A DNA stretch of 34,779 nucleotides from Candidatus Azambacteria bacterium. GTDB lineage: Bacteria > Patescibacteriota > Minisyncoccia > UBA10092. The position numbers and the translations under genes are program-made. The notes under the pieces were generated by a model, which worked only from the letters and a program-made list of their open reading frames with translations, searched no databases and was not told the origin of the DNA. Positions within the stretch are counted from its first letter, which is position 1. The number at the start of each line of letters is the position of its first letter. Positions 2,722 through 31,609 of this stretch are shown piece by piece. The stretch lies in the NCBI GenBank assembly GCA_016213445.1, contig JACRAJ010000002.1, positions 1 through 34,779 on the forward strand, in the 5' to 3' direction.

Positions 2722-4353
2722 ATGGCAATGAGCAGGAAATATATTTTTGTTTTAATATTAATTATTGTTTTGGCGGTTTTTTTTAGATTCCGGCAGTTTA
2801 CGTCAATTCCGGCCGGCTTGTATCAGGACGAAGCGATGAACGGCTCCGATGCTTTGACTTCATTAAAATCCGGCGATTTTTCCGCTCAAGGCGGACCAGC
2901 CTCGGGCTGGAAGATTTTTTATCAAAATAATAACGGCCGGGAAGGAATGATGGTCTGGCTTGACGCGCTGGCCGTAAAATTATTCGGAACGGAACCATGG
3001 GTTTTAAGATTGTTTCCGGCAACAGCGGGAGTTTTGGCGGTTTTAGGCCTCTATTTTTTGGCATTGGAATTATTTGGCGCGGAAATCGCTTTAATTTCAA
3101 GTTTTTTTATGGCGACAAGTTTTTGGGCGGTGAATTTCAGCCGTACGGGATTTCGAGCCGGTTTAATGCCGCTTTTTTTGATTTGGTCATTTTATTTTTT
3201 GCTACGCGGCTTTAATATACGGATGTCCGACGCTCACAATAACGGGCATCGGACATTCGTATTTATGTTCGTTTTGGCGGGAATTCTGTTCGGTTTGGGA
3301 TTCTATACTTATATTTCGTTCAGGTTTGCGCCGGTGTTGGCGCTTTTAGTTTTTGGACCGGCGCTTTTAAAAAAATATAATGGCCGATTTAATCGGCAGT
3401 TATTAATCGGATTTTTATTTTTTATTTTGACGGTTTTTATCATTGCCCTTCCGATTGGATTGTATTTTCTAAAAAATCCGACAGACTTTTTTGGCCGAGC
3501 TTCCGGAGTTTCCGTATTTTCTTCGTCGTCTCCGCTTAAAGCGGCGGCTGCCAGCGTCATTAAAACCGTCGGCATGTTTAACATTGCCGGAGATTTTAAC
3601 TGGCGCCATAATTACGCCGGTTCGCCGGAATTGTTCTTTCCGGTCGGGTTGTTTTTTCTTTTGGGAATTTGGTTGAGCATTAGGCGGTTTGAGTTTAAAG
3701 ACAAGTTTTTGCTTCTTTGGCTTGGAGTTTTTTTACTGCCCAATGTTTTAACAAGCGAAGGCAACCCCCATTCTTTAAGGGCTTTGGGCGCCATGCCGGC
3801 GGCAATGATATTCGCCGGAATCGGCCTGTTTTGGCTTTATCAAAAAATTCAGGCGTATTTTGACGGCAAAATTAAAAATCCGGATTTTTTCAAATACAAA
3901 AGCCAGCTTTTAAGGTTAAAAAAAGAAACATTTTTGCTTTTAATGGTATTTTTGGTTTTTATCGGAGCTTATAATTTTAACGGATATTTCAATCTTTGGG
4001 CTTTTAATCCAAACGTTCTTTCGGCTTTTTCTCGCGACCAAGTTGAAATTGCGAATTATCTGAACAGTTTGCCGGAACAAACGGAAAAGTACGCCATTTG
4101 GGATGCAAGCGACAGAGCGACGGATAACGGGCTTCCGGTATCGGCTCAAACGGTTTATTTTTTAACGGCGAAAAAAATTAAAGTAAATTATTTAAAATCC
4201 GACGAACTTGATAAAATAAATCCCGGTGCAAATGGTTTGGTTATCGCTCCGTTATATTATAATTTGGATTTATTGCGCGATCTGAACAAACGATTTCCGC
4301 AAAGCAAAATTAATTTTATTTACATAAACACCGCCGTTGTATCGATTCAGTAA
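2722..4353 (+). CDS. ArnT/PMT-like (GT-C fold) membrane glycosyltransferase; start may be ATG 2728
   Basis: GLYQDEA acidic motif in the first loop, NNGREG, about 11 TM segments and a soluble C-terminal tail; carries palindromic inserts. Confidence 0.85.
   Translation: MAMSRKYIFVLILIIVLAVFFRFRQFTSIPAGLYQDEAMNGSDALTSLKSGDFSAQGGPASGWKIFYQNNNGREGMMVWLDALAVKLFGTEPWVLRLFPATAGVLAVLGLYFLALELFGAEIALISSFFMATSFWAVNFSRTGFRAGLMPLFLIWSFYFLLRGFNIRMSDAHNNGHRTFVFMFVLAGILFGLGFYTYISFRFAPVLALLVFGPALLKKYNGRFNRQLLIGFLFFILTVFIIALPIGLYFLKNPTDFFGRASGVSVFSSSSPLKAAAASVIKTVGMFNIAGDFNWRHNYAGSPELFFPVGLFFLLGIWLSIRRFEFKDKFLLLWLGVFLLPNVLTSEGNPHSLRALGAMPAAMIFAGIGLFWLYQKIQAYFDGKIKNPDFFKYKSQLLRLKKETFLLLMVFLVFIGAYNFNGYFNLWAFNPNVLSAFSRDQVEIANYLNSLPEQTEKYAIWDASDRATDNGLPVSAQTVYFLTAKKIKVNYLKSDELDKINPGANGLVIAPLYYNLDLLRDLNKRFPQSKINFIYINTAVVSIQ
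2881..2910 (+). repeat. 30-nt double-hairpin element, copy A (in frame, SAQGGPASGW)
   Basis: tccgct-caa-ggcgga ccagcc-tcg-ggctgg. Confidence 0.9.
3217..3262. repeat. Intragenic hairpin of the TCCGAC-core family
   Basis: atacggatgtccgacgctc-8nt-gggcatcggacattcgtat; 19-nt arms with 16 Watson-Crick pairs, 2 G-T pairs and 1 mismatch. Confidence 0.75.
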
Positions 4354-4373
4354 ATAAAAATTTATAAATTATT

Positions 4374-6230
4374 ATGAAAAAAATTAATCTTTTGGCCGCG
4401 GCATTTTTAACAATTTTCGGCTTGCTGGCTTTTACCAGCATGTGGAATGACAATGCCAATTATGATGAAAGAATTCACTTGCCGGCCGGCTATTCGTATA
4501 TCACCCAGCAGGATATGCGGCTAAATCCGGAGCATCCGCCGCTAGTTAAAGATTTAGCCGCTTTGCCGCTTTTTTTTATAAAAATAAATTTTCCGTATAA
4601 AAGCTGGGGTTGGAATACGCCTTTATCGGTTGATTCATCGCGAACTCCGGCTTGGCAAACCGATGTCGGTTTCGGAAATGATTTGCTTTATTTTTCCGGA
4701 AACGACGCTCAAAATATGATGCGGCTCGCGAGAATTCCGATGATTTTGATAGGGCTTCTTTTGGGTTTTTATATCTTCAAATTCAGCAAAGAATTGTGGG
4801 GCGATTGGGCCGGACTTATCGCTTTAGCTCTTTATTCTTTCTCCCCCACTTTTTTGGCGCATACCAGATTGGTGACGACCGATGTGGCCGCCGCCGCCGC
4901 TTTTTTTATAAGTTTTTATTATTTATATAAGTGGCTCAAATTGCCGACCCTCCGCCCTTCAAAAAATGGCGGGGGGCGTAATCTGTGGATTTTTGGAATT
5001 GTTTTGGGTCTTAGTTTATTAACTAAATTTTCAACGATTCTTTTGATTCCGATTTTTGGGTTTATCGTTTTAGTTTGGATTTTACTGCAAGAATCCGGCG
5101 AAAAATTACGGGCTTTAAAAAAATATCTTGGCGGATTTGTTTTGGTTCTAATGATCGCATTTTTGGTAATCGGCGCGGTATACGCTTTTCACGTTCGGAA
5201 TTATCCGGCCCAAAAACAAGCGATTGACACAGATTTTATTTTATCCACTTTTGGTTTCAAGCCGCTGGCTGATTTAAGTGTCTGGATTTCTTCGCAACCG
5301 ATACTTCGCGCTTGGGGTCAATACTTTTTAGGATTTTTAATGGTGCTCCAGCGATCCGGCGGCGGCAATACGACCTATTATCTCGGTTCGATTTCAGCCG
5401 ACGGTTCGCATTCTTATTTTCCGACGGTGTATATGCTCAAAGAGCCGCTCACTTATATTTTATTGGAATTTTTCGCCTTATTTTTAGCTTTGAAAAAATT
5501 TATCGCTTATAAAAAATCGGGCGGCGCGTTGTTTGGACGGGATTTTTCAAATTTGTTAAAAAATAATTTCGCCGAGTTTGGAATGCTGGCTGTGATTTTT
5601 GTATATTGGGCTTTATCCATTAAATCCAATCTCAACATCGGCGTTCGCCATATTTTGCCCTCTTTGCCCTTTATTTACGCCTTAACGGCTCGCCAGATAA
5701 GTTTTTGGATAAAGGGCAGCATTACGGAACGAATTGCGGATTATCGCGGATTTTGGCAGCTTTTTAGTTTGCACTGGCGCCGCATTAAAAAGGGGTTTGT
5801 TGTTGCCGTTTTGTTGATTTGGGCGGTTATTTCCGTTGTTTCCGTGTGGCCGTCGTTTCTGGCTTATTTCAATGAAATTGCCGGCGGCCCCGATGGCGGC
5901 TACAAATTTGTCGTAGATTCAAATCTTGATTGGGGCCAAGATATTTTGCGATTGTCGCGGTTTATAGAAAAAAATAACATTAAAGAAATTAAGATGGATT
6001 ATTTTTCCGGCGCGCCGGCGGAGTATTACATTAAAACCGCGAAAATCGATTCTTACAATCGGGAAATTCCGCAAAAGGGCTGGCTGGCGGTATCGGCGAC
6101 GATTTACATGGGCGCTTGCAAGGGCGATAAAATCCCCTGCTCTTACAACGAACGCGCTTACACCTGGCTTGATGCGTATAAGCCGGTTGCAAAAATCGGC
6201 TACTCGATTTTTGTTTATAAGATAGATTAA
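4374..6230 (+). CDS. Lipid-carrier-dependent GT-C glycosyltransferase (PMT_2/ArnT-like)
   Basis: YDERIHLPAGYSY, RLNPEHPPLVK, LVTTD, NIGVRH and DSNLDWGQD motifs; polytopic membrane protein. Confidence 0.85.
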   Translation: MKKINLLAAAFLTIFGLLAFTSMWNDNANYDERIHLPAGYSYITQQDMRLNPEHPPLVKDLAALPLFFIKINFPYKSWGWNTPLSVDSSRTPAWQTDVGFGNDLLYFSGNDAQNMMRLARIPMILIGLLLGFYIFKFSKELWGDWAGLIALALYSFSPTFLAHTRLVTTDVAAAAAFFISFYYLYKWLKLPTLRPSKNGGGRNLWIFGIVLGLSLLTKFSTILLIPIFGFIVLVWILLQESGEKLRALKKYLGGFVLVLMIAFLVIGAVYAFHVRNYPAQKQAIDTDFILSTFGFKPLADLSVWISSQPILRAWGQYFLGFLMVLQRSGGGNTTYYLGSISADGSHSYFPTVYMLKEPLTYILLEFFALFLALKKFIAYKKSGGALFGRDFSNLLKNNFAEFGMLAVIFVYWALSIKSNLNIGVRHILPSLPFIYALTARQISFWIKGSITERIADYRGFWQLFSLHWRRIKKGFVVAVLLIWAVISVVSVWPSFLAYFNEIAGGPDGGYKFVVDSNLDWGQDILRLSRFIEKNNIKEIKMDYFSGAPAEYYIKTAKIDSYNREIPQKGWLAVSATIYMGACKGDKIPCSYNERAYTWLDAYKPVAKIGYSIFVYKID

Positions 6231-6362
6231 TTGAAAAACAAGCTGCGTTCTAGCTGTCGCTGGACAGCTGAGCGCGCGAGGAAAATTATTTATATTGGTT
6301 TTAAAGATGAAAAAGATTGAAGTGAATGCGGGTTTTGTTTTAAAAAACTAAAAAATAAAAAT

Positions 6363-7154
6363 TTATTTCATTTTGTAAAAAACGCGGGTGGGGATGCGCA
6401 AGTCGATATATGCCAGATTTTTTTCGCCGTTTTTTACGGCTTCGTTCAAAGTGGTGAATAAACTATTCGCTTCCGATTTCGGGTCCTGATTCTGATCCAA
6501 ATAAATCTGCCAGCCGCGATCGGTGACGGCTTTAAAGTTGATATTCGGCGCAGGATCGACTTCAAATTCGGTTATTTTTATTTTATTGCGGGCGATTATT
6601 TCATTATTAAATTGGATTATGAAATTTAAAATGCCGTCGTTTAAAACTTTATCGCCCGGCGCGGCATTGTTTTTTCCAAAGTCTTTTATTTTCAATATCA
6701 AAGCTCCTTCCGTTTGCGGCGCTTCTTTAAAAATAATTCCTTCTTTGTCCAAGTAATAACTGCCGGTATTGTTTTGCCAGATTCCGATCTGCGTTCTTTT
6801 TTCGAAATCAATCGCCAAACCGTGAAGCGGTTTTTTTGAAATGCTGATATTGGTCAATTCGGGAAAGGCCGCCGCCAACTTAACGTTTAACCGATTTTTT
6901 GAAAGAATGAATAAATTTTCGCCGAGATGCAAAGGCGCTGACGCGGCCGTTAATTTATAAATATCATCGGCGGCGATTATGTCGTTTTTAGGCAGTTTTA
7001 CCTCCGTTATTTTGAAAAATGACGAAAAAAACAGCGCCCAAATCGCGATTATTAATATTGCGGAGGAAGCAAAATAAAAAAGTCTGAATTTCCAGTTTCT
7101 TTTTCTCTCTTCTTTTTTTATGGTTTTGAATCTCCAATATTTGCTCGACGGCAT
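6363..7154 (-). CDS. ftsQ: Cell division protein FtsQ/DivIB-like
   Basis: Basic N-terminus, single TM, FKITEV POTRA start, C-terminal YIDLR motif. Confidence 0.8.
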   Translation of the reverse strand: MPSSKYWRFKTIKKEERKRNWKFRLFYFASSAILIIAIWALFFSSFFKITEVKLPKNDIIAADDIYKLTAASAPLHLGENLFILSKNRLNVKLAAAFPELTNISISKKPLHGLAIDFEKRTQIGIWQNNTGSYYLDKEGIIFKEAPQTEGALILKIKDFGKNNAAPGDKVLNDGILNFIIQFNNEIIARNKIKITEFEVDPAPNINFKAVTDRGWQIYLDQNQDPKSEANSLFTTLNEAVKNGEKNLAYIDLRIPTRVFYKMK

Positions 7155-7207
7155 AATATAAAGATAACAAAAAAACGGCCGCTTTCAAAACAACACAAAT
7201 AATTTTC

Positions 7208-7356
7208 CTCTAAAAACAATCCCGCATTCGTTTTCTCGCGGGTTGTGAGCCCGAGCGGGCATGGTTTGCGAAGCAAGAGCGAGGGCGAACCCTTTCATTT
7301 CCCGCGCTGGGGGAAATGAAAAAAGCGAGAAAGTGAATGCGGGGTTGTTTATAGAG
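7208..7356. mobile_element. MITE-like or structured intergenic element with about 32-bp imperfect terminal inverted repeats
   Basis: 7208-7239 matches the reverse complement of 7325-7356 at 28/32; internal hairpins, including a perfect 11-bp stem 7293-7303/7311-7321; related copy at 34641-34696. Confidence 0.6.
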
Positions 7357-7403
7357 CGAAGAAAAAGCAATGAGATTGGGGTTAGGAAAGGAAAGCGGCG
7401 CAA

Positions 7404-8615
7404 TTACATATACTTTTCCAGAACCTTTGGGATTTTTATTGTGCCGTCTTTTTGCTGGCAGTTTTCCATTATGGCGATAATCATTCTGCCGATGGCGAAA
7501 GCGGTGCCGTTCAAAGTGTGCGCGTACATATTTTTTCCGGTTTTTTCGTTTTTATATTTTATGTTGAGCCGGCGCGATTGAAAATCCGTGTCATTCGATG
7601 TTGAATGGGTTTCGCGATACTGATTTTGCCCGGGAAGCCACACTTCTATGTCGTATTTATTGGCGGCTTGCACGCCCAAATCGCCGGTGCAAATTTGAAG
7701 GACGCGATAGGGCAATTCCAAAGCTTTCATTAATTTTTCTTCCATTGAAAGCAAAAATTCGTGTTCTTTTTTGGCGTCTTCCGGCCGCGCAAAACTAAAC
7801 ATTTCCACTTTATCAAACTGGTGAACTCGCAAAATTCCTTTGGTGTCTTTGCCGTAAGAACCGGCTTCGCGCCTGAAACAGGAAGAAAATCCGGCATAGC
7901 GAAGCGGTAATTGCTTTTCGCTAAATATTTCATTCATACGCATTGCGCCTATCGCCTGCTCCGAGGTGCCTATCAAATATAAATCGTCTTTTTCAAGATG
8001 GTAAACTTCATCTTCGTTATAATCCAAATAACCCATGCCGCGCATTGCCTCCGGTTTTAAAAAAACGGGCGGAACAATCGGAATAAAGCCTTCTTTTTCC
8101 AACATATCAAAAGCAAAACGAACAAGGGCGAATTCCAAGCGGACAGCGCCGTTTAACAGGTATCCAAATCGGCTGCCGACGGCTTTTCCGGCGCGTTCGG
8201 CATCTATCCATCCGAGAGACTCGGCAAGAGCCATATAATCTTTAGCCGGAAAATCAAATTTTGGCTTGTTCCCCGCTTCGCGTAAAACTATATTTTCGGT
8301 TTCATCTTTTCCAATCGGCACTTCCGCCAGCGGCAAGTTCGGCAATTTTCTCATAAGTAAATCCAATTTTTCCGAAATAATCTTTTTTTCCGATTCCAAT
8401 TCGCTTAGTTTAACTTTAATTTCTTTGCCCTTTTCCACGTCTTTTTTGTCAGCCGCTTTTTTACGTTCGGCGTTCAAATCTTCGATTTCCTTTTCCAATT
8501 TTCGGTTTTGCTCGTCTAAATTTAAAATCAAATCGACGTCAATATCGAAACCCTTGGCTTTCACGCCTTTTTCAGTATCATTTTTATTTTCTCTTATATA
8601 TTTTATGTCTAACAT
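7404..8615 (-). CDS. serS: Serine--tRNA ligase
   Basis: MLDIKYIREN, GTSEQ, FRREAGSYGKDTKGILRVHQF, HTLNGTA. Confidence 0.98.
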   Translation of the reverse strand: MLDIKYIRENKNDTEKGVKAKGFDIDVDLILNLDEQNRKLEKEIEDLNAERKKAADKKDVEKGKEIKVKLSELESEKKIISEKLDLLMRKLPNLPLAEVPIGKDETENIVLREAGNKPKFDFPAKDYMALAESLGWIDAERAGKAVGSRFGYLLNGAVRLEFALVRFAFDMLEKEGFIPIVPPVFLKPEAMRGMGYLDYNEDEVYHLEKDDLYLIGTSEQAIGAMRMNEIFSEKQLPLRYAGFSSCFRREAGSYGKDTKGILRVHQFDKVEMFSFARPEDAKKEHEFLLSMEEKLMKALELPYRVLQICTGDLGVQAANKYDIEVWLPGQNQYRETHSTSNDTDFQSRRLNIKYKNEKTGKNMYAHTLNGTAFAIGRMIIAIMENCQQKDGTIKIPKVLEKYM

Positions 8616-8635
8616 TTTTTATTTTATTGAATTAT

Positions 8636-10048
8636 TTAAAAAGGTTTGGTTCGGTTTTGCATGTCTTGATTTTCGGTTTTCGGCCTCATTGTCGGAAAGA
8701 ATATAATTTCTCTTAGGGTATGAGAATCGGTTAAAAGCGCCGATAAACGGTCTATGCCGATGCCGAATCCGGCGCATGGAGGCATGCCGTATTCCAAAGC
8801 TTCCAAAAAATCTTCGTCAAACCGATGCGCCTCTTCATCGCCTTTTCCTCTAAGTTTTTCTTGGTTTTCGAATTTTTCGCGCTGTTCTATCGGATCATTT
8901 AATTCCGTGAACGCCTTGACCAGTTCAAATCCGCCTATAAAAATTTGAAAAGCGTCGGCTTTTGAAGGATTTTTTTCGGAGGATTTGGAAAGCGGTAAAA
9001 GCTCGGCCGGAAAACCGCTTACAAAAGTCGGTTGAATAAGCTTGTGTTTGGCGGCGTCTAAGTCGCCGAACTCTTTTATTAGGTCGTCGTAATTTTTTTC
9101 TTCAAACGGCCGCGAAAAATCAATCGAATTTCCGGCGTAAGTTATGGTTAAGCTGCCGTTGTTTAGTTTTCGCGCCAAAGATCGCAAAAGATTTTCCAAA
9201 AAAATTTTCAAATATGAAGAATTTTTGTATGCAATATAAGCTTCAAGCATCGTGAATTCCGGATTGTGGTGGGAATCCATTCCTTCGTTTCTGAAACAGC
9301 GCCCGATTTCATAAATTTTTTCAAAACCGCCGACGAGAAGCCGTTTGAGATAAAGTTCGGGCGCCACGCGCAAGTATAAGTCCATATCCAAAGCGTTCAG
9401 ATGGGTTTTAAACGGTTTGGCCGCGGCGCCGCCCGGAATCGGCTGAAGCATCGGTGTTTCAAATTCAACAAATCCATTGTTTTCAAGAAAATTTCTCAAT
9501 TCACTTATCAGCCGCGATCGCGTCAAAAAATTTTCTTTTATTTTGGGATTCATTAAAAGATCAAGATATCTTTTGCGATATCTTTCCTCCACATCTTTAA
9601 GGCCGTGCCATTTTTCCGGCAGAGGCCTCAAGGTTTTGGCGGCCATCGCCAATTTTTCAACACGGACGGTTTTTTCTCCTTTTTTGGTTTTAAAAACCAA
9701 GCCTTTGATTTCCGCAAAGTCGCCGATGTCAAAATTAGCCAAAAATTCACTATATGAATTTTTTATTTTTTCATTTTCGGACAAGCTTTTAGGGCTTAGA
9801 AAACACTGGATTTTTCCGCTTTCGTCTTCCAAATCAAAAAATGCCGCTTGGCCGTGGATTCTCATCGATTTTATTCTGCCGGCCAAATTAAATTTTCTTC
9901 CGGCCAGTCGCCAAAGCCAAAATTTATCAAGAACTTCCTTGATGCGGCAATCGCGTTTTACATCGTTTGGATAAGGATTTTTTTTCTCGGCTTTTAGCGA
10001 TTCTAATTTTTTTATTCTGATTTCGCGAAGCTCTTCAATGGTGGGCAT
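8636..10048 (-). CDS. lysS: Lysine--tRNA ligase (class II)
   Basis: LPEKWHGL, RYRKRYLDL, GGAAAKPF, APELYLKRL, FRNEG, YGMPPCAGFGIGIDRL. Confidence 0.97.
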   Translation of the reverse strand: MPTIEELREIRIKKLESLKAEKKNPYPNDVKRDCRIKEVLDKFWLWRLAGRKFNLAGRIKSMRIHGQAAFFDLEDESGKIQCFLSPKSLSENEKIKNSYSEFLANFDIGDFAEIKGLVFKTKKGEKTVRVEKLAMAAKTLRPLPEKWHGLKDVEERYRKRYLDLLMNPKIKENFLTRSRLISELRNFLENNGFVEFETPMLQPIPGGAAAKPFKTHLNALDMDLYLRVAPELYLKRLLVGGFEKIYEIGRCFRNEGMDSHHNPEFTMLEAYIAYKNSSYLKIFLENLLRSLARKLNNGSLTITYAGNSIDFSRPFEEKNYDDLIKEFGDLDAAKHKLIQPTFVSGFPAELLPLSKSSEKNPSKADAFQIFIGGFELVKAFTELNDPIEQREKFENQEKLRGKGDEEAHRFDEDFLEALEYGMPPCAGFGIGIDRLSALLTDSHTLREIIFFPTMRPKTENQDMQNRTKPF

Positions 10049-10059
10049 GGTTCAAATTA

Positions 10060-10089
10060 TCGGCCATAGGCTGATCCGCCTTTGGCGGA
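10060..10089 (-). repeat. 30-nt double-hairpin element, copy B (intergenic, 11 nt upstream of lysS ATG)
   Basis: Minus strand: tccgcc-aaa-ggcgga tcagcc-tat-ggccga. Confidence 0.9.
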
Positions 10090-10130
10090 AAAAATTAAAT
10101 TTTAATCTTAAAAATTAAAATTGTGATTTC

Positions 10131-10595
10131 TTATTTTTCTATTTTGATGATTTTATATTTTACGGCGCCGCCCGGAGTTTTTATTTCGATTTCATTTCCT
10201 ATTTTTTGGCCTAAAAACGCCCGGCCCAAAGGAGATTCATTTGAAATTTTGCCTTCTTGAGGTTTAGCTTCGGCCGAGCCGACGATGCTAAACGCTTCTA
10301 CGCCGCGGTTGGATTTAACTTCGATTGTGGAGCCTATCCTAACAATATTTTCCTCATTTGAAGCTTCGATTACCACCGCGTTTTTCAAAAGATCTTCGAG
10401 TTCGGCGATGCGATTATCGTTGAGTGATTGCGCTTCTTTCGCTTCAAAATATTCGGCGTTTTCGGAAAGATCGCCCAAATCTTTGGCCTCTTGAAGCCGC
10501 TTGGCGATTTCCTGCCGTTTTGTCGTTTTCAATTCATGAAGCTCTTTTTTAAGGGCTTCAATGCCCTCTCGGCTCAAATATGTTTGTTTTGCCAT
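10131..10595 (-). CDS. greA: Transcription elongation factor GreA
   Basis: GDLSENAEY and ISNESPLGRA motifs. Confidence 0.97.
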   Translation of the reverse strand: MAKQTYLSREGIEALKKELHELKTTKRQEIAKRLQEAKDLGDLSENAEYFEAKEAQSLNDNRIAELEDLLKNAVVIEASNEENIVRIGSTIEVKSNRGVEAFSIVGSAEAKPQEGKISNESPLGRAFLGQKIGNEIEIKTPGGAVKYKIIKIEK

Positions 10596-10604
10596 AGATA
10601 AAGT

Positions 10605-14865: not shown

Positions 14866-16158
14866 TTAGATTTTTCCGCCAAAGGCGGATCCGCCTTTGG
14901 CGGAAAATTTTAAATTTAATAATTCCGAAATTTTTACCAGCTTCGTCTCTTTTTTATTTCTTTGTTTCAATTCAACCGAATCTTTTTCAAGAGTCTTTTG
15001 GCTAACCACCGCGCGCCAAGGAATTCCCAGCAAGTCGGCGTCGGCGAATTTCTCGCCGGCGGTTTTATCGTCGCGGTCATCGTATAATACTTCCATTCCT
15101 TTATCAATGAGTTCTTCGTGGATTTTTTCCGCTTGTTCTTTAACGGAATTTTCTTCCGCTTGCTTGGCGGCGATTTCAACGAGGTGAATCTTGAAAGGCG
15201 CTATTTCTTCCGGCCAGATTATTCCTTTGTCGTCATTATGGATTTCCACGGCGGTTCCCATCAAGCGGCCCAATCCGATGCCGTAAGAACCCATTATCAC
15301 GTATTCTTTTTTACCCTCTGAATTTATAAATTGCAAATTGAAAGCGGAAGAATATTTGGTGTCCAAAGGAAAAAGATTTCCAACTTCGATAGCTTTTTCC
15401 ATTTTAATTTCTCCCCGACATTCGGGGCATTTATCGCCTTCTTCAAGCTTGGAAATTTCCTTGTTTTCCGCGTATCCGCATTTTAAACAAACAAAAATTG
15501 TGTCTTCTCCGACTGGAGTTATCACTTGAAATTCATGGGTATGGCTTGCGGTGAAAACTCCGCCGGCCGCTATGGTGTAAACGGCCTTTAAGCCGCAGCG
15601 GTTGAAAATTTTAAAATAAGCCGCCTTTACTTTTTCATAAAAGTTTTTCAAATCTTCTTCCGAAGAATGGAAGCTGTATAAATCTTTCATTATGAATTCG
15701 CGGCCGCGCAACAGGCCCGATTTTGCCCTCGGCTCATTTCGAAATTTGGTTTGGATTTGATAAGCGGCAAACGGCAAATCTTTATATGAGTTTACGTATC
15801 GGGTGGCAATAGCCGTCAGCACTTCCTCGTGCGTCCAACCCATGACGAAGTTGGCGGTTTTTTCGTTTTTTTCCTTCGCTTCAAAACCAATAGGCACATC
15901 CCAGCGTTTGGTGGCATCCAAATATTTTTTTTCCACAAGCGCCGGCATAAACATTTCTTGTCCGCCGATGGCATTCATTTCTTCGCGGATAATATTGGCG
16001 ATTTTTTCAAGCGTTCTCCAGCCTGAAGGCAGATAAGAATAAACGCCGGCGGAATTTTTATAAACAAAACCGCCCCGTTCCAAAAGCCGGGCGTTGACGC
16101 TCGTTTCATCTTTTGGATTTTCCCGCAAAGTATGTCCGAAAAGTTGTGATTGCTTCAT
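14866..16158 (-). CDS. proS: Proline--tRNA ligase, short form without the INS editing domain
   Basis: MKQSQLF start at 16158, THEE, KFRNEPRAKSGLLRGREF, MGSYGIG, GEKFADADLLGIP. Confidence 0.95.
   Translation of the reverse strand: MKQSQLFGHTLRENPKDETSVNARLLERGGFVYKNSAGVYSYLPSGWRTLEKIANIIREEMNAIGGQEMFMPALVEKKYLDATKRWDVPIGFEAKEKNEKTANFVMGWTHEEVLTAIATRYVNSYKDLPFAAYQIQTKFRNEPRAKSGLLRGREFIMKDLYSFHSSEEDLKNFYEKVKAAYFKIFNRCGLKAVYTIAAGGVFTASHTHEFQVITPVGEDTIFVCLKCGYAENKEISKLEEGDKCPECRGEIKMEKAIEVGNLFPLDTKYSSAFNLQFINSEGKKEYVIMGSYGIGLGRLMGTAVEIHNDDKGIIWPEEIAPFKIHLVEIAAKQAEENSVKEQAEKIHEELIDKGMEVLYDDRDDKTAGEKFADADLLGIPWRAVVSQKTLEKDSVELKQRNKKETKLVKISELLNLKFSAKGGSAFGGKI
14875..14904. repeat. 30-nt double-hairpin element, copy C (in the ProS C-terminus, SAKGGSAFGG)
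   Basis: tccgcc-aaa-ggcgga tccgcc-ttt-ggcgga; with flanks it is a perfect 36-bp palindrome at 14872-14907. Confidence 0.95.
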
Positions 16159-16239
16159 AAAATGTATTAAAATTAAAATGCCCTTTATTCTGAAATATAT
16201 TCTACAACAGATTTTATCATTAGAAAATATTGACAAATA

Positions 16240-19221: not shown

Positions 19222-19252
19222 CAGATTTTAATTAAAAATTGAAAATTGCGCG

Positions 19253-21526: not shown

Positions 21527-21603
21527 AGTGCACTTATTTTACATTGAATTTTTCAATTCGAAAACATTGACAAAATAAACTCGAAGTGGCAATAATTGCA
21601 ATC

Positions 21604-22530
21604 ATGACCAGAAGATTCAGAAGGTTTATTTTTTTGATATTTACCGCGCTTTTTATAATGTGCAGTTTTGCCGCGGTTCTTTTTGCCGAAGGTTATCGGT
21701 TTGATTTCAGCGACTTTAAACTGGTAAAAACCGGCGGAATTTTCATTAAAACATCCACTGATGGGGCCAAAATATACATTAACGACAAATACATAGAATC
21801 AACCAATGGAATTTTAACCCACAGCGTTTTAATAAGCGGTCTTGCGCCAAAAAACTACAATGTTTTTGTTTATAAAGAAAATTATTATCCATGGAATAAA
21901 GTTGTTAAAGTTGAAAATGGAATGGTGTCCGAGTTGGATAGCATACTTTTATTTCCTCTGGAATTAAAGAAAAATAAAATTGCCGAATTGTCCGATCAGA
22001 CAATTTCCGAATTTGAAATAATCGACAGCGCGGTGAAAATTAAAAATAACAAAGCCAAAACGCTCAATACCTATAATTTAAATGACGGCAAGTTGCTAAC
22101 GAGCGAGAAATTCTCCGCCAAAGGCGGACCAGCCTCTGGCTGGAAAACCACCACGTCATCTCCTCAAGAAATAATTTCTCCCGATAAGAATAAAAAACTT
22201 TATGTTTTAAATAATCGGATTTGGGTTGAATATTTAAAAAATATAACGAAAGATCCCATTAAAAATGCCGGAGAAAAAGAATTGCTTGCCATTTACGAGC
22301 CGCCAATTGATTTTTTTGAATGGTTCGGGGATTCCAAACACGTAATGTGGTTTGCCGACAACGAATTAAATGTGGCCGAATTGGATAATAGAGGCGGAAA
22401 GAGAAACAGTATTAATTTTTATCTCGGCATCAATCCCCCGTTTTTTTGGGATCGCGAAAATTCCGAACTTTATTTTTTTGAAAAAAGCGCGGGAAAAAGT
22501 GTTTTATACAAAATAAGTTTCAAATCTTAA
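21604..22530 (+). CDS. Membrane-anchored PEGA domain protein with beta-propeller-like C-terminus
   Basis: TM, GYRFD, KTGGIFI, GAKIYIND, KENYYPW. ATG 21604 is preferred over GTG 21586 because of the promoter position. Confidence 0.8.
   Translation: MTRRFRRFIFLIFTALFIMCSFAAVLFAEGYRFDFSDFKLVKTGGIFIKTSTDGAKIYINDKYIESTNGILTHSVLISGLAPKNYNVFVYKENYYPWNKVVKVENGMVSELDSILLFPLELKKNKIAELSDQTISEFEIIDSAVKIKNNKAKTLNTYNLNDGKLLTSEKFSAKGGPASGWKTTTSSPQEIISPDKNKKLYVLNNRIWVEYLKNITKDPIKNAGEKELLAIYEPPIDFFEWFGDSKHVMWFADNELNVAELDNRGGKRNSINFYLGINPPFFWDRENSELYFFEKSAGKSVLYKISFKS
22114..22143 (+). repeat. 30-nt double-hairpin element, copy D (in frame, SAKGGPASGW)
   Basis: tccgcc-aaa-ggcgga ccagcc-tct-ggctgg. Confidence 0.92.
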
Positions 22531-23689: not shown

Positions 23690-23698
23690 TAAAATTAA

Positions 23699-24670: not shown

Positions 24671-24696
24671 AATTTTTCTATAATATTAAAATAATT

Positions 24697-25323: not shown

Positions 25324-25338
25324 AAATATGTTGGAATA

Positions 25339-26183: not shown

Positions 26184-26205
26184 ATGTTTTTATCTAATGA
26201 ATCCT

Positions 26206-26270
26206 GGGAATTTTTGACGTCCCGCGAAGCGGGACTAAAATTCCCGTGAAAGCCGCACCGCGGCTTTTCA
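26206..26270. repeat. Two adjacent hairpins in the rpmJ-rpsM spacer
   Basis: gggaatttt..gtcccgc-gaa-gcgggac..aaaattccc (26206-26245) and aaagccgc-acc-gcggcttt next to the rpmJ stop. Confidence 0.7.
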
Positions 26271-26381
26271 CCCTTGTCTCTGTTTATGTTTGGGGTTTGA
26301 ACAGGTTATATAAAGCCGTCTTTGGCGACGGACAATTTTGCATTTCGCGCAAATTTTTTTAACACTGGCTCGAACCTTCAT
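26268..26381 (-). CDS. rpmJ: 50S ribosomal protein L36
   Basis: [37 protein letters not shown] (zinc-ribbon form); true ATG at 26381. Confidence 0.97.
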
Positions 26382-26388
26382 TATATTT

Positions 26389-26601
26389 TTACAGCCTTTT
26401 AATAATTCGACCCCGTTTTTTATCAACCGAAAGCTCAACTTCAACTCTGTCGCCAACCAGAACTCTAATAAAATTCAGCCTCATTTTTCCTGATAAATGG
26501 GCTAAAATTTCCGAGTTGTCATCAATTTTTACCCTAAAGGTTGTGTTGGGCAAAGCCTCAACAACGGTGCCGCTTAATATGGACCTTTTATTATCTATCA
26601 C
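26389..26601 (-). CDS. infA: Translation initiation factor IF-1
   Basis: [29 protein letters not shown]. Confidence 0.97.
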
Positions 26602-26606
26602 GGCAA

Positions 26607-28400
26607 TTATTGGTTGTCAAGAGTAATGTTTATTTTGTCCGGGCTATTCGGCGCTTGCCTAACCCAAAACGGCCATAAAGAAATGGAGGCGCTGTTAACA
26701 AAATTTTTTCCGGCAATTACATTTCTCATTCCATTCTCATCAAGCCCGGCGAGATTTTTTTTCAATCCGGCCAAATCAACAACAAAAGCGTTGTCTTTGT
26801 TAAGATCGAAAGTAAAAAATATTTCGCCCTTTTTAAAATCTGCTTTAAAGGCTTGAGGATAAGATATTGTATCCCTAAAATCAAAATTTTGCAAGACGGG
26901 GTATTTATTAACCGCCGTGTAATTCACCAGCGACCTAAAATCTTTTTCATTGAAAAACACGGCTTGCCAGGTAATTTTCATGCTTACAATTTGAGAATCA
27001 ACTTTAACTTCATCTGCTTTAACGGTTGAAGCGCCGTCAATCAATACAAAATTCGAATTTTTATAAGCGTTTAAAGTGTCGTTTTTAAGCTCATTTGCCA
27101 ATTCGTTTTTCAAATTTTCTTTCGTTATTTCAATCGCTTGCGTTTGGCCGGCAGGCGCCAGACCGCCGGACACGGCCGCCATCGGCTCCGCGCTTTCCGC
27201 ATAAAATCCCGCGTATTTTGGAGAACCTTTAAATCCCGGAATGGTGAAATAAGACGGGCCGATTAAGTATTCTTTTCCGGCCGCATCGCTTACAACTTCG
27301 GTTTTGATTGAGCTGGGGATCAATTTGGAACCCGACATTTTTGCTCCCGGAACGGTTATCGATTTTTGTATCCTGAATACTTTTCCGTCTTTTGTTTCAA
27401 ATCTGGTTTGAGCTATCAATTTTTGAGGAGCCGCGCTGTAAGCGTTGTAAACGGTTATTAAGCCTCCGGCTTTAACCGGCAAATTAGCGCTGTCGTCGGC
27501 GCCGATTATTTCAATCGCTTTCGATCCGGATTTGGTCAGCAGAAAATATTGGCCGGGAAGAATTCCGTTCGCCAAATCGGGCGCGGTTATGTTTTTACTG
27601 ACGGCAGTTTGAATGGACAGCTTTATCGGAACTTCTTTCAGCGAGAGCTTCACATTGGCTTTTGGCAATATTAAATACATTGCCGCCGCCAAAAGTAAAA
27701 TCCCGACGCCGATAAAAGACGCAATTAACTGTTTTAAAGAAAAAGATTTTTTGAAACCGATTTTTGACTGTTTGATTTCGGCTTTGTTTTTCGGTTCGTT
27801 ATAGAAAGCTTCAAGGTCTTTTTCCAATTCCGAATTATCATTCGCGCCAAGTCCGACAATCGTGTTTTTACGCGCAATTTCATCTGCAATTGCGTTTTCG
27901 CCAACGAGATTTTCGCCTTCCTCATTAAAAGAAACGCCGGTTTCTTGTTGAGGAATAAAATCAATTTTCGGTTCCGAATCGGTGTTTATTTCCAAATCCG
28001 GTTCCAATTCCAATTCCGGCTCCGGCTTTGATTCCACTGACAAACGTTCCGCTTTTGCGAGATGAAAAGCCGGCGGCGTAATATCAAGCATTTTCCTTGT
28101 TTCTCTTTTAGGCTCTTTTATTTCTTTTTCTTTCGCAGGCGCGCAATTGGCGTCATAAATCGGCAGCTGTATTTTTTCCGCGAATTTTTTAATATCTTTA
28201 CTTTCGGTATCTATATATAAATTTTTATTTACGCTCTCGGCTTCTTCTTTTAAAATTTTAAGCGAATTCAAATCTGCGGCGAGCATGGAGTTTTTCGGCA
28301 AAATCAAAATTATCTCGCTATGTTTCGACTTCATCAAGCGGCCGATTAAAATCGCCGCATCGTCTTTTGTTCTGGCGCGAATTATTTCAACGTTTTCCAT
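26607..28400 (-). CDS. Hypothetical single-TM protein with a baseplate-J-like extracellular region
   Basis: N-terminal IILILPK..LKILK domain, acidic linker, TM, then [26 protein letters not shown] pattern; recognised from memory only. Confidence 0.55.
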
Positions 28401-28435
28401 TTAAAATTTATAATTTTTTAACTTTTAAAAACAAT

Positions 28436-28450
28436 GGGATTGGGTTTAGG
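28436..28450 (-). repeat. CCTAAACCCAATCCC motif downstream of alaS
   Basis: Exact 15-mer match to 34641-34655; 13/15 match at 7372-7386. Confidence 0.65.
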
Positions 28451-28492
28451 ATATTTCGGTAATTAGTAATAATTATACAACAAAATATTTTT

Positions 28493-30274
28493 TTATTCCA
28501 CAACGGCTCTTATCCGGCGTATGCCGGCCGACGAACTTTCTTCTTTTATTATTTTAAATTCGCCTATCTCGCCCGTTCTCGCGACATGCGGCCCTCCGCA
28601 AAGCTCTTTGGAATAAGCTTTGGACGGATCGGGGTCGCCGATGGAATAAACGTTAACTTCATTCGGATATTTATCTTTTAAAAAAGCGCGCGCGCCCATT
28701 CTAATGGCGCCTTCTTTGGACATCTTCGCGGAAAAAACCGGCAAATCAAGCTTGATTTTCTTGTTAACAATGTTTTCGATTTTTTTTAATTCTTCCGGCG
28801 TCAGTTTGCGGGGAAACGCAAAATCAAATCTCAATCGCTCCGGAGTAATGTCAGAACCTCTCTGTTGGACTTCCGCCTCGTTTCCCAAAACATCGTGAAT
28901 CGCCTGATGAAGCAAATGTGTCGCCGTGTGCAATCTTGTGATTTTATCGATTTCTTTAAAACTTGTCGCCTGTCGCCTGTCGCCTGTCGCTATCCCGTGT
29001 CCTCCGAATTTTTTTTCCGCTCCGGCACGGGAAATTTCCCGGTGTTTTTTAAAAGACGTTTCCCATCCGGATTCATCTATATTAAATCCCCTTTCTTCGG
29101 CAAGTTCTCGCGTCAGTTCCGTCGGAAAACCGTAGCTTTCATAAAGATGAAAAGCGTCTTCCCCGGAAATAATTTTTTCTTTTTTGGCGGCAAGCGTTTT
29201 TTCAAGCTCCTTCAGCCCCTTTTCAAGAGTCTTGTAAAATTTTTCTTCCTCTTTTTGGATTACCGTTAATATATCTTCGCGTTTTATTGAAATTTCCGGA
29301 TAAAATTCCTTATACATTTTAATAACTTTCTCCGCTAAAGAAATCAGGAAATTTTTATCAAAGTCTAAAACTTTGCCATAGCGAATGGCGCGCCGCAAAA
29401 GCCGGCGCAAAATATATCCGGCGCCAATGTTTGAAGGTAAAATGCCATCGGCGATAAGAAACACCGATCCGCGAATATGGTCGACGACAATTCTTACCGC
29501 TCGCGCTTCATTTTCTATGTCTTTGTGCGGAATTGATTGAATCAGCGGTTCGAATAAGTCGGTTTCAAAAATTGTCGGAGCGTCTTGAGAAATCATGGCA
29601 AGGCGTTCCAATCCCATGCCGGTGTCTATTCCGTTTTGTTTAAGCGGCTCCAAATTTTTATCGGCGCGGCAATAATATTGGTTGAAAACCAAATTCCAAA
29701 TTTCAACGCCGTCAACATAAATTTCCGAGGTCGGGCCGCAAGGGCCTTCATCGCCGGTCGGGCCCCAAAAATTATCCTCGCGCCCGCATTTTTTTATTTT
29801 ATCATCGCCAAGCCCCAAGCTTTTCCAAATCGCTATTGATTCAGTATCTTCCGGCACAACTTGCCCCGAGTTTGTCGAGGGGTCGCCTTTAAAAACCGAA
29901 ACATGGCAACGCTCGGGAGAAATGCCTAATTCTTTGGTGATGAATTCCCAGCTCCATTTAATCGCGTCTTCTTTGAAATAATCGCCAAAGCCGAAATTGC
30001 CGAGCATTTCAAAAAAAGTGAGATGCGACTCGTCGCCCACTTCGTCGATATCCGAAGTGCGTAATGACTTTTGTATCGAAACGGTTCGCCGCGCGCCGAA
30101 ATCTTTCACCGGATCTTTCGCGCCGGTGTAATAAAGCTTGAATTGCTGCATTCCGGCCGTCGTTAAAAGCACGGACGAATCATCTTCAGGTAAAAGCGAA
30201 GAAGAAGGCACAATTTTATGCCCCCTCTTCTCAAAAAATTCCAAAAATCTTTTTCTTAATTCTCCGGATGTCAT
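28493..30274 (-). CDS. alaS: Alanine--tRNA ligase, short form lacking C-Ala
   Basis: TTAGMQQF, HLTFFEMLGNF, GPCGP, DTGMGLER, HTATHLLH, ELCGGPH, GIRRI. Confidence 0.97.
   Translation of the reverse strand: MTSGELRKRFLEFFEKRGHKIVPSSSLLPEDDSSVLLTTAGMQQFKLYYTGAKDPVKDFGARRTVSIQKSLRTSDIDEVGDESHLTFFEMLGNFGFGDYFKEDAIKWSWEFITKELGISPERCHVSVFKGDPSTNSGQVVPEDTESIAIWKSLGLGDDKIKKCGREDNFWGPTGDEGPCGPTSEIYVDGVEIWNLVFNQYYCRADKNLEPLKQNGIDTGMGLERLAMISQDAPTIFETDLFEPLIQSIPHKDIENEARAVRIVVDHIRGSVFLIADGILPSNIGAGYILRRLLRRAIRYGKVLDFDKNFLISLAEKVIKMYKEFYPEISIKREDILTVIQKEEEKFYKTLEKGLKELEKTLAAKKEKIISGEDAFHLYESYGFPTELTRELAEERGFNIDESGWETSFKKHREISRAGAEKKFGGHGIATGDRRQATSFKEIDKITRLHTATHLLHQAIHDVLGNEAEVQQRGSDITPERLRFDFAFPRKLTPEELKKIENIVNKKIKLDLPVFSAKMSKEGAIRMGARAFLKDKYPNEVNVYSIGDPDPSKAYSKELCGGPHVARTGEIGEFKIIKEESSSAGIRRIRAVVE
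28964..28991. repeat. Heptamer tandem array (TGTCGCC)x4 in alaS
   Basis: tgtcgcc tgtcgcc tgtcgcc tgtcgct; encodes ATGDRRQATS. Confidence 0.9.
29859..29882 (-). repeat. Small imperfect hairpin insert in alaS (PSTNSGQV)
   Basis: Minus strand cccctcgacaaactcggggcaagt, between VFKGD and VPEDTES. Confidence 0.6.
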
Positions 30275-30304
30275 TAATTCAGTTTAACAGAGCATCCTGC
30301 TAAA

Positions 30305-30403
30305 CACAAATCAATAGGTTTCCGACACCTATTGATTTGTGCGGGGTTTACGATAAAAATTTTAATTTAAATGAGAATTCAATAGGTGTCGGAAACCTAT
30401 TGA
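30305..30403. repeat. REPIN-like inverted doublet of 25-nt palindromes between alaS and mnmA
   Basis: tcaataggtttccgacacctattga (30311-30335) and its exact reverse complement (30379-30403); the first extends to 15-bp arms at 30305-30341. Confidence 0.9.
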
Positions 30404-30409
30404 TGTATT

Positions 30410-31609
30410 TTAAATTATAATTCCGCCGCCGAGCATTGCGCCGTTTTTATCGTAAAACACCGCGCTTTGGCCGGGCGTAATTGCTCGTTGAGGAACATCA
30501 AAAATCAGCGACATGCAACTAGCGACACGCAACATGCTTTCATTGCTTTTCTTTGTATCTTGTAGCTTGTTACTTGTCGCTATTATTGCTTGTTGCAGCG
30601 GCTGGCGATATCTGATGCGCGCTAAGCATTTCAAAGGCAATTTCGGCGCGCTTCCGGAAATCCAATTAATATCTTTTACGGTTAATTCTTTGGCAAAAAG
30701 TTTTTCATTTTCACTTTCGGCCACCCAAAGCGTGTTTGTCTTCATGTCTTTTCCGGCAACATAATAAACTTTTCCCTGTTCGCCGGGCAAACTGCCTTTT
30801 ATTCCGATTCCCTTTCTCTGCCCGATGGTATAGAAAATCACGCCGTCGTGCGCGCCGATTGTTTTTCCATCAAGCGTTTTTATCGGCCCAGAATTCTTTC
30901 CGAGCCTTTCTTTAAGAAAACCCGCGACATCTATTTCTCCGACAAAACACACGCCCTGCGAGTCAGGCTTTTCCGCCGTCGGCAAGCCGTATTTTTTTGC
31001 CAATGCCCGCACCTGCGGCTTGGTATAATCGCCTATTGGAAAAAGGCAATGTTTCAATTGCTCCTGCGTCAAAGTCCATAAAAAATACGACTGATCTTTT
31101 GCGCTATCGTGCGCGGTGACAAGCGACAAGCGACAAGCGACATGTTTTTTAATTTTATTTCTTGTCACATGTTTTTTGTCACATGTCGCCCGCACATAAT
31201 GTCCCGTGGCGATGTAATCCGCGCCGAGCGTCAATGCTTTTTTTAGAAACAAGCCGAACTTAATTTCGCGATTGCACATTACATCGGGATTCGGCGTTTC
31301 GCCTTTGGCGTATCCGGAAACCATATAGTCAACCACGGTTTTTTTATATTCGTCTTCAAAATCAAAAACGTAAAACGGGATTTTTAAAACACCGGCGGCT
31401 CTCCGGGCATCCGCCGCATCTTGTTCGGCGCAACCGGTTAAAGACCAGCCTTTCATATAAACTCCGACAACGTCGTATCCCTTGTTTTTTCCGCCAGAGG
31501 CGGATCCGCCTTTGGCGGACAACAATAAAGCGGCGACGGAACTATCCACTCCGCCCGACATTGCCATAAATATTTTTGGTTTTTTTCGGTTTATTTTTGA
31601 CATACGCAT
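30410..31609 (-). CDS. mnmA: tRNA-specific 2-thiouridylase MnmA
   Basis: AMSGGVDSSV, TPNPDVMCN, ATGHY, KDQSYFL, DSQGVCF, YTIGQR, RYRQ, AITPGQ. Confidence 0.97.
   Translation of the reverse strand: MRMSKINRKKPKIFMAMSGGVDSSVAALLLSAKGGSASGGKNKGYDVVGVYMKGWSLTGCAEQDAADARRAAGVLKIPFYVFDFEDEYKKTVVDYMVSGYAKGETPNPDVMCNREIKFGLFLKKALTLGADYIATGHYVRATCDKKHVTRNKIKKHVACRLSLVTAHDSAKDQSYFLWTLTQEQLKHCLFPIGDYTKPQVRALAKKYGLPTAEKPDSQGVCFVGEIDVAGFLKERLGKNSGPIKTLDGKTIGAHDGVIFYTIGQRKGIGIKGSLPGEQGKVYYVAGKDMKTNTLWVAESENEKLFAKELTVKDINWISGSAPKLPLKCLARIRYRQPLQQAIIATSNKLQDTKKSNESMLRVASCMSLIFDVPQRAITPGQSAVFYDKNGAMLGGGIII
30508..30580. repeat. Inverted degenerate heptamer arrays in the mnmA C-terminal domain
   Basis: gcgacat gcaacta gcgacac gcaacat -17nt- ttgtatc ttgtagc ttgttac ttgtcgc. 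Confidence 0.75.
31116..31189. repeat. Inverted heptamer arrays in mnmA after the GHY motif
   Basis: gtgacaa gcgacaa gcgacaa gcgacat -18nt- ttgtcac atgtttt ttgtcac atgtcgc. Confidence 0.85.
31490..31519 (-). repeat. 30-nt double-hairpin element, copy E (in frame in mnmA, SAKGGSASGG)
   Basis: Minus strand: tccgcc-aaa-ggcgga tccgcc-tct-ggcgga. Confidence 0.95.

Follow-up and report, generated by a model that had tools for sequence, protein, structure and literature searches.

Repetitive extragenic palindromic (REP) sequences and Rickettsia palindromic elements (RPEs) are the closest described relatives of the sequence reported here. REPs are GC-rich short stem-loops, often arranged as head-to-head dimers, that are dispersed through genomes and differ between related ones; as far as the account in PMC3733652 extends, they are mostly extragenic, with intragenic copies described in DNA polymerase I, repair genes, tRNA synthetases and other genes. 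The same account includes a superfamily (CGTC repeats) for which no dedicated transposase is known and whose movement is left open, and it states that repeat families and tyrosine transposase genes are frequently not found together (PMC3733652). RPEs, in the portion of PMC10969869 devoted to them, are palindromes of ~150 bp in ten families, inserted in frame in unrelated, often essential genes of Rickettsia, where their peptide is tolerated, and no transposase is known for them. Here we describe a 30-bp double hairpin present in five copies in a stretch of 34,779 nucleotides (the window) of contig JACRAJ010000002.1 from Candidatus Azambacteria, and in many further copies in its source genome (G000; 426,113 bp, 2 contigs, GC 0.42-0.44) and elsewhere. 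Filled and empty alleles show that this 30-mer is a DNA-level repeat arriving or leaving as an exact 30-bp block. Intragenic REPs and RPEs are already known in other bacteria, and the 30-mer is a REP/RPE-like variant of them.

The 30-mer has the short (20-40 bp) GC-rich palindromic stem-loop and the many dispersed copies that characterize REPs. It differs from them in its 15-nt unit, its exact 30-bp dimer, the lack of a link to a REP-associated tyrosine transposase (RAYT) and a stem sequence common to several phyla; insertion without target duplication is a further difference from the described families. Neither REP tag, GTAG or CGTC, occurs in 93 copies taken with 4-nt flanks, and 21 of the 24 copies in the source genome are genic, whereas REPs, within the coverage of PMC3733652, are mostly extragenic. 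With RPEs it shares palindromic structure, in-frame position in unrelated and often essential genes, a tolerated peptide and the lack of a known transposase; RPEs, on the description in PMC10969869, are ~150 bp long and found in Rickettsia only, while the element here is 30 bp and cross-phylum, a comparison made by description and not by sequence. The initial annotation had noted a likeness to RPEs in proteins and to REPs. A literature search turned up no paper giving the unit sequence or the peptide or describing an element of this kind in Patescibacteria; it left aside supplements such as Additional file 3 of PMC3733652, a list of intragenic REPs that may hold related families. Sequence matches to the unit in the literature were cloning primers only. 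Nothing in the window scored as high as the gathering score of any Rfam family.

A 30-bp hairpin dimer with filled and empty sites

The initial annotation had placed five copies in the window, and all five were found there (ORF, open reading frame; frame 0 is the frame shared by the coding copies of the window):

2881..2910, + strand: copy 1, asymmetric type (TCCGCT-CAA-GGCGGA plus CCAGCC-TCG-GGCTGG), in the PMT_2/GT-C glycosyltransferase ORF 2722-4353 (+), frame 0, aa 54-63 (FSAQGGPASGWK)
10060..10089, no strand assigned: copy 2, intergenic, with one stem imperfect, between the start of a class II aminoacyl-tRNA synthetase ORF, 8636-10048 (-), and an ORF at 10131-10595 (-)
14875..14904, - strand: copy 3, perfect palindrome, forming the C-terminal tail (…KFSAKGGSAFGGKI, then stop) of the ProRS ORF 14866-16236 (-)
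22114..22143, + strand: copy 4, asymmetric type, in the PEGA-domain ORF 21586-22530 (+), frame 0, aa 177-186 (FSAKGGPASGWK)
31490..31519, - strand: copy 5, in the MnmA ORF 30410-31609 (-), frame 0, aa 31-40, LLL[SAKGGSASGG]KNKGYD

A degenerate pattern allowing up to 3 mismatches gave 8 window matches, all at these 5 sites, as the three palindromic sites match on both strands; the chance expectation in the window was 0.00 (100 dinucleotide shuffles). Each copy consists of two abutting 15-nt units placed head to head, a unit being a 6-bp stem with a 3-nt loop. The perfect form, TCCGCC-AAA-GGCGGA followed by TCCGCC-TTT-GGCGGA, is a 30-bp palindrome and therefore reads alike on both strands, giving the same peptide from both; its length is a multiple of three, and it is stop-free in every frame. 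The ORF map and Pfam matches bear out the earlier assignment of four copies to coding sequences (GT-C, proS, PEGA and mnmA), which share one frame and the peptide SA[KQ]GG[SP]A[FS]G[GW]K. Copy 3 lies within the last 13 codons of the ProRS ORF, just upstream of mreB, and copy 5 falls between the PP-loop helix of MnmA and the next strand. The intergenic copy 2 sits 12 nt upstream of a class II synthetase of the Asp/Lys/Asn type, a gene that is not proS. As RNA it forms two hairpins (-17 kcal/mol); for copy 4, two hairpins are the minimum-energy fold (-19.5 kcal/mol).

Comparison with homologs identifies the 30-mer as inserted DNA. Alignment of MnmA with the solved structures PDB 2hma and 9hlv leaves a gap of exactly the ten element-encoded residues, and all 5 MnmA orthologs in congeners (75-80% identical) are without the insert; class II fructose-bisphosphate aldolase (FBA) shows an 8-residue gap at the element position relative to PDB 3q94. 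The 20 contigs compared from the congener G002 (424,336 bp; at least 21 contigs exist) contain 29 copies, and in ortholog alignments between the two genomes the position opposite a copy is usually empty. At exact DNA-level pairs of filled and empty sites the flanks are identical and the filled allele has ten extra codons, with no base duplicated or lost. Clean sites of this kind (a slash marks the insertion point) occur in PolA (AAA TTA/AAA GTG), a YceG-like protein (TTY/AAA), PIF1 (ATT/GAA), NusB (TTT/GAA) and the PolA of G002, where the copy is in frame 1 (TTTT/CA); one further insertion is at ATG/GCY. Three window sites are also empty in G002: the GT-C site as a 10-codon gap, the PEGA site, and the ProRS site, where the G002 protein is without the 13-aa tail. 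The initial annotation had described a codon-multiple repeat in unrelated proteins without target-site duplication and had proposed looking for empty alleles in orthologs; the clean 30-bp empty sites agree with that description, and target-site duplication is absent from the pairs. The element's codons are identical in all copies, with no synonymous spread, and identical DNA is found in other frames and in intergenic positions, which excludes a peptide motif kept by protein-level selection.

We placed these sites on a tree built from FBA and RuvB (625 gap-free columns, element columns removed), which has the form (G008,((G000,G003),(G001,(G005,(G004,G002))))) and support values of 85-99. For both FBA and RuvB, G000 and G002 alone carry the element, at exactly the same nucleotide position; G001, G003, G004, G005 and G008 have the empty site. 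Because G000 and G002 are not sisters, each site requires two gains or four precise losses. The GT-C site is filled in G000 and in G005, with the same type in both; at the L25 site, G000 and G001 have a copy and G002 has none; and at the ComEC and CysRS sites the subtype differs with the genome. Close relatives can differ in how many units (1, 2 or 3) a given site holds. Either insertion recurs at a small set of permissive or preferred sites or copies are often excised precisely, and under either alternative a precise process has been active since these species split. Among individual loci, G004 has three units (L252 2267-2311) where G002 has two (C11:3266), ComEC retains one unit in G002 and two in G004 and G005, and in the IscS of G002 only the first part of a copy remains after a 30-nt deletion.

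The hairpins were assessed in a structure alignment of 93 copies, of which 89 are distinct, drawn from nine genomes including G000 and G002. Under a two-hairpin model, 99.2% of the stem cells of the 89 distinct copies are paired, and both sides have changed in 99 cells, compared to 29.9±3.7 in shuffles, none of which (0/500) reached 99. Perfect copies, folded as RNA, have their energy minimum in a single long hairpin of 13 bp (-28.8 kcal/mol), but 82.4% of it pairs, versus 83.6% when shuffled. Thus, the compensatory changes in the stems support two short hairpins and not a single long one. In a second set of 227 distinct copies (454 units), collected with a pattern that did not require pairing, positions 1 and 15 are T-A in 407 units, C-G in 42 and unpaired in 5, and positions 3 and 13 are C-G in 393, A-T in 61 and unpaired in none; the compensated stems TTCGCC with GGCGAA and TGCGCC with GGCGCA were also seen. 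These are counts of copies and not of events, because subfamilies amplify; nonetheless, four stem types combining two covarying pairs need several independent double changes. Covariation, reported earlier for the second stem, is real, although the third example given for it, copy 2, is imperfect, with a G.T on the + strand and an A.C on the - strand.

Stems kept by compensatory change imply that a single-stranded or cruciform form matters. The head-to-head arrangement also shows in the loops: among 237 perfect doubles, loop 1 is rich in purines in 223 and loop 2 in pyrimidines in 224, so the element amounts to a pair of 15-bp terminal inverted repeats that abut. In many contigs of G440, a Lentisphaerae-labelled genome, there is an amplified subfamily in which many copies share a stem mismatch. 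The mismatch reads G.T on one strand and A.C on its complement, a hint that only one of the strands is active.

Distribution, target preference and reading frame

The source genome contains 17 abutting pairs of perfect 6-3-6 hairpins, 15 of which belong to this family, and 24 copies of the 30-mer when one substitution per unit is allowed (~1 per 17 kb). A 13-mer from the element occurs 21 times and is the commonest listed 13-mer of the genome outside simple AT-rich sequence. Three copies are intergenic and 21 lie in ORFs with Pfam support or of great length; since ~85% of the genome is coding (fraction ~0.85, using ORFs as a proxy), genes are not avoided. The hosts are the GT-C enzyme, ProRS (tail), the PEGA protein, MnmA, a class V aminotransferase (IscS-like), CysRS, ribosomal protein L25, FBA, NusB, a 192-aa protein without a Pfam match, FKBP (tail), a methyltransferase, a TPR membrane protein, TatD, ArgRS, a PIF1-type helicase, ComEC, DNA polymerase I (PolA), RuvB and a Pro-rich protein with two copies. 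Three of them are aminoacyl-tRNA synthetases, and most copies lie within essential genes. Frame 0 accounts for 17 of the 21 coding copies and frame 2 for the other 4 (NusB, TatD and the two copies of the Pro-rich protein), with none in frame 1, so the earlier statement that all coding copies share one frame applies within the window and not genome-wide. A rule linking orientation to the coding or replication strand was also considered and rejected: the asymmetric frame-0 copies of the source genome all encode SAxGG and then PAxGW (6/6), but other genomes show both orders, with 2 forward (L177, L209) and 5 reverse (L180, L182, L183, L194, L198) asymmetric copies in long ORFs.

Beyond the source genome, 16 of 41 relatives carry the element at no more than one mismatch, and a reversed-pattern control gave 0 everywhere. 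Occurrence is patchy within the genus, with 29 copies in G002 versus no match in G003. In an even sample of the phylum, exact matches were found in 48/401 genomes and 46/320 genera. A scan for the symmetric type, with one genome per species, returned at least 120 stretches; among the 80 matches listed, 37 have labels of the Candidate Phyla Radiation (CPR), 35 have other labels and 8 are unlabelled. The non-CPR labels among the matches listed include Omnitrophota, 'uncultured Gammaproteobacteria', Kiritimatiellae, Ignavibacteria, Lentisphaerae, Planctomycetales and Chloroflexota; two matches in very GC-rich contigs with GGC-rich flanks may be due to chance. Non-CPR carriers reach about 65 sites per genome, and five large ones gave the following counts of matches:

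G438, Kiritimatiellae-labelled, 4.1 Mb: 64 forward, 65 reverse
G440, Lentisphaerae-labelled, 3.1 Mb: 60 forward, 63 reverse
G439, Omnitrophota-labelled: 13 forward, 18 reverse
G436, Ignavibacteria-labelled, with a 1.63-Mb contig: 5 forward, 5 reverse
G437, Ignavibacteria-labelled, with a 1.65-Mb contig: 7 forward, 5 reverse

Many copies in the other lineages are intergenic. The pattern scan that the initial annotation had called for therefore yielded further copies in the source genome, in relatives and in other phyla, and the element is not specific to CPR. Every genome has its own predominant variant, suggesting local amplification, and stems that are identical across phyla point to a common reader protein or to a route by which bacteria of groundwater and sediment exchange DNA. 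Phages were considered as a vector and do not appear to be the main carriers, with the symmetric pattern in 2 stretches of the viral collection versus at least 120 of the genome collection; plasmids of cultured bacteria gave only 3 weak matches (E 0.1-0.5). Two loci embed the 30-mer in larger repeats. In a Kiritimatiellae-labelled stretch (L027 4569-4752 and 6390-6572) it lies inside a ~185-nt composite intergenic repeat, beside other palindromic units, and in G437 (C4:2136771-2137778) four identical copies spaced by 326 nt are part of a longer tandem repeat.

In four copy sets (23, 29, 86 and 44 copies), the left flank of the element is rich in T and the right flank in A, for coding and intergenic copies alike. 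T occupies position -2 in 83-89% of copies and A occupies position +2 in 77-91%, with positions -1, -3, +1 and +3 conserved less; the consensus with 4-nt flanks is nTTT-TCCGCC..GGCGGA-AAAn (93 copies). Empty sites already carry these bases, indicating that they represent a target preference and are not part of the insert. The initial annotation had noted TTN and AA beside the coding copies; junction sequences vary within the T-rich/A-rich preference.

Such a target constrains the frame. A strict TT/AA target cannot give frame 1, because an in-frame TAA would be needed, and TTAA sites in the genes of the source genome number 1484, 0 and 1521 by phase. With a position matrix derived from 40 intergenic-like copies, the predicted fractions for frames 0, 1 and 2 are 0.42-0.45, 0.17-0.19 and 0.37-0.41 (about 0.43, 0.18 and 0.39). 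Copies in ORFs of at least 190 aa and at least 12 aa from either ORF end were counted as follows (frames 0, 1, 2):

G000: 14, 0, 3
G002: 17, 1, 6
Symmetric scan set: 42, 3, 4
Asymmetric set: 6, 0, 7
Total (n = 103): 79, 4, 20

The chi-square of observed versus predicted frames is 48.7, a value to be read with non-independent copies and ORFs as gene proxies. The three frames encode the Gly/Ser/Ala peptide SAKGGSAFGG (frame 0), the Pro-rich PPKADPPLAE and the basic RQRRIRLWR. Target preference accounts for part of the frame-1 deficit but not for the frame-0 excess, which argues for selection on the peptide after insertion. The bias beyond target preference points to purifying selection on the encoded peptide as its simplest reading.

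Models for the movement of the 30-mer

We favor, at a probability of roughly 0.6, a REP/RPE-like miniature repeat: a head-to-head dimer of a 15-nt GC-rich stem-loop with a purine-rich loop that is moved as a 30-bp block, and not by a resident RAYT. As the filled and empty sites show, 30-bp copies arrive or leave exactly, and they lie at T-rich/A-rich junctions in coding and non-coding DNA. A genic copy would merely add ten residues and would survive where that peptide is tolerated. Selection after insertion would then enrich the SAKGGSAFGG frame, permit PPKADPPLAE less and nearly purge RQRRIRLWR, and amplification would be local to each genome, as the predominant variants suggest. The mover would most likely be an unrecognised trans-acting recombinase or nuclease rather than the resident RAYT.

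Several observations weigh against this model. Movement was not observed directly, and no exact 30-nt skip was present among the Logan-contig joints listed, beyond which there are 73 more; these are joints of contigs and not of reads, and contigs would reveal neither transcripts nor rare empty alleles. Occupancy of the same site in non-sister genomes can mean repeated gain or repeated precise loss alike. The survey of enzymes produced no mover: co-occurrence of Y1_Tnp with the element is about that expected under independence, TnpB-type domains occur in 0/41 relatives and IS110 in 2/41, and the five copy-rich genomes include none with DDE_Tnp_1, two with rve, two with a resolvase and four with a Xer-like integrase. 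An autonomous parent, with a gene between two units, was absent from the ~2 Mb of DNA examined, a search outside which the public collections lay. In addition, frames were called from stop-to-stop ORFs and not from gene models, the taxon labels of metagenome-assembled genomes are the depositors' own, and coverage of G002 was incomplete.

A more far-reaching proposal, which we put forward tentatively, is that the 30-mer is the smallest mobile DNA so far. It would consist only of two abutting hairpin ends and would still be active in several phyla, with precise entry and exit and independent gain and loss at the same sites; it might be moved by an unrecognised widespread enzyme or by none, and its sequence might have been shaped to be stop-free, with a harmless Gly/Ser/Ala loop as its commonest product.

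Spread without any transposase survives best among the alternatives, though we consider it rather unlikely. Here, template switching at microhomology near stalled forks, or annealing of hairpin-protected single-stranded DNA at the fork, perhaps after uptake, would create new copies, with the T/A runs serving as microhomology. Illegitimate recombination of short fragments exists, and the competence gene ComEC is present. G002 carries its 29 copies with no match to Y1, TnpB-type, IS110, DDE_Tnp_1, rve or resolvase domains and only a Xer-like integrase, insertions are exact and without target duplication, the T-rich/A-rich flanks are seen on copies and empty sites, and one, two or three units at a site are what slippage would give; cross-phylum spread would need no shared enzyme. 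However, the best-kept flanking positions are -2 and +2 and not the junction positions -1 and +1, which looks more like site recognition, and some clean insertions, such as that at ATG/GCY, are without T/A microhomology. Near-identical stems across phyla are also easier to explain with a protein reader.

The initial annotation had attributed mobilization to a Y1/RAYT enzyme, that is, to a Y1/HUH transposase (RAYT or an IS200/IS605-type TnpA) reading single-stranded hairpins of a REP in trans. We regard this as unlikely, even though the lack of target duplication and the hairpins at both ends fit Y1/HUH chemistry. The source genome does encode one Y1_Tnp/RAYT-like protein (226 aa, contig C2) with HUH-like and Tyr motifs, but its gene is bracketed on both sides by a different, REPIN-like hairpin doublet and not by the 30-mer. 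Y1_Tnp genes are present in 5/5 of the large non-CPR carriers, yet only 1 of 20 Y1 loci in these genomes has a double copy within ~1.5 kb, and on one side only. Among the 41 relatives, Y1_Tnp occurs in 22 and the element in 16, with both in 8, the element only in 8, Y1 only in 14 and neither in 11, which is no association; the copy-rich G002, G008 and G009 gave no Y1 match at 91, 88 and 93% completeness, and the unit has no GTAG or CGTC tag. The frequent lack of co-occurrence between transposase genes and repeats, as related in PMC3733652, softens these objections.

Other described systems resemble the 30-mer in part. REPINs are doublets of inverted hairpins acting as one replicating unit, a likeness to the 30-mer; the REPIN-like family of the source genome, with its RAYT-like gene, is nevertheless separate from it. 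Elements of the IS200/IS605 type insert 3' of one fixed tetra- or pentanucleotide and have a Y1 TnpA in the genome. Palindromes derived from them share with the 30-mer the absence of target duplication and the hairpins at both ends, but here there is only a T-rich/A-rich preference with varied junctions, and three copy-rich genomes are without a Y1 match. Miniature inverted-repeat transposable elements, as PMC10969869 defines them in the section consulted, are likewise small and non-coding, with terminal inverted repeats and lineage-specific copy number; the 30-mer has no target-site duplication, is GC-rich and not AT-rich, and is far below their usual size. The coding palindromes of nematomorph mitochondria are also translated inverted repeats within protein-coding sequence, but, in the part of PMC6649704 that describes them, they reach 284 bp and are gene-specific rather than a dispersed family.

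A DNA or RNA signal selected by the host, such as a nucleoid, topoisomerase or recombinase site, an mRNA structure or an uptake signal, appears improbable. In its favor, the stems of the 30-mer are kept by compensatory change, and symmetric copies have a 12-6-12 layout of inverted arms like that of recombinase core sites. The hosts include genome-maintenance proteins (PolA, RuvB, PIF1 and ComEC), a trend that PMC3733652, as far as its account goes, also gives for intragenic REPs. In addition, at the two sites filled in both G000 and G002 the copies differ in a loop base only, while flanking synonymous sites differ often; these are, however, probably independent gains, weakening the argument from conservation. 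Against a signal stand the low density of ~1 per 17 kb, the patchiness within the genus, the non-orthologous positions and the origin of copies in 30-bp blocks instead of by point changes. DNA uptake sequences differ from the 30-mer on two of these grounds, having very high density and an origin by point change and not by block insertion.

Selection for the ten-residue peptide itself, as a flexible linker or a modification or cleavage site, with the DNA similarity secondary, is close to refuted. Frame 0 predominates (79/103), with a hydrophobic residue usually before the peptide and Lys usually after it, but the codons are without synonymous spread, frames 2 and 1 and intergenic positions hold the same DNA, the peptide is missing from the orthologs in sister species and from solved homologs, and the flank preference is also intergenic. 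Last, an assembly or sequencing artefact, a possibility the initial annotation had allowed for, is very improbable. Unitigs do break at copies, and such repeats can mislead assemblers, but the assemblies come from many depositors and methods, the copies are in frame and obey coding constraints, and Logan contigs of four groundwater runs, which break at copies, carry the 30-mer highly repeated, with 17-22 different flanks per run, confirming it independently of assembly.

If the miniature-repeat model is correct, ultra-small genomes with almost no intergenic DNA would carry a proliferating repeat because the repeat translates harmlessly. Many short Gly-rich or Pro-rich inserts in CPR proteins would be accounted for, and annotators and structure predictors would have reason for caution about such inserts. 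The copies would also provide natural maps of permissive loop sites in essential enzymes. Finally, the 30-mer, short at 30 bp, with clean filled and empty sites and present in many genomes, would be a tractable case for how REP-like elements without a RAYT move, a matter that the account in PMC3733652 leaves open for the CGTC repeats.

Other repeats in the source genome

The REPIN-like family comprises hairpin doublets ~68 nt apart, with 13 hairpins genome-wide. Two are in the window (30314-30332 and 30382-30400), and others are at C2:30578, 31315 and 31383 and at 8 further sites.

Tandem heptamers, GCGACAA or AGCGGCA in 3-4 units, occur inside the genes for MnmA, TatD and ArgRS. They are found at 31118-31142 of the window (in mnmA), at C1:43462 and at C2:41479, 55734, 64288, 67550, 56791, 65172, 68115 and 191243. 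In MnmA they fall where the protein has 12 extra residues compared with PDB 2hma, which makes them a second type of small in-frame insertion.

A region of contig C2 (167285-175640) encodes a tyrosine integrase, a 527-aa serine recombinase and an rve-type integrase within 9 kb and may be an integrated element. A repeat of ~90 nt has at least 8 copies or fragments, at C1:82872 and 97961 and at C2:70996, 133860, 166821, 246535, 252999 and 266360. Tandem GAAAATT heptamers are present at 13 sites in the genome, including 19234-19248 of the window.

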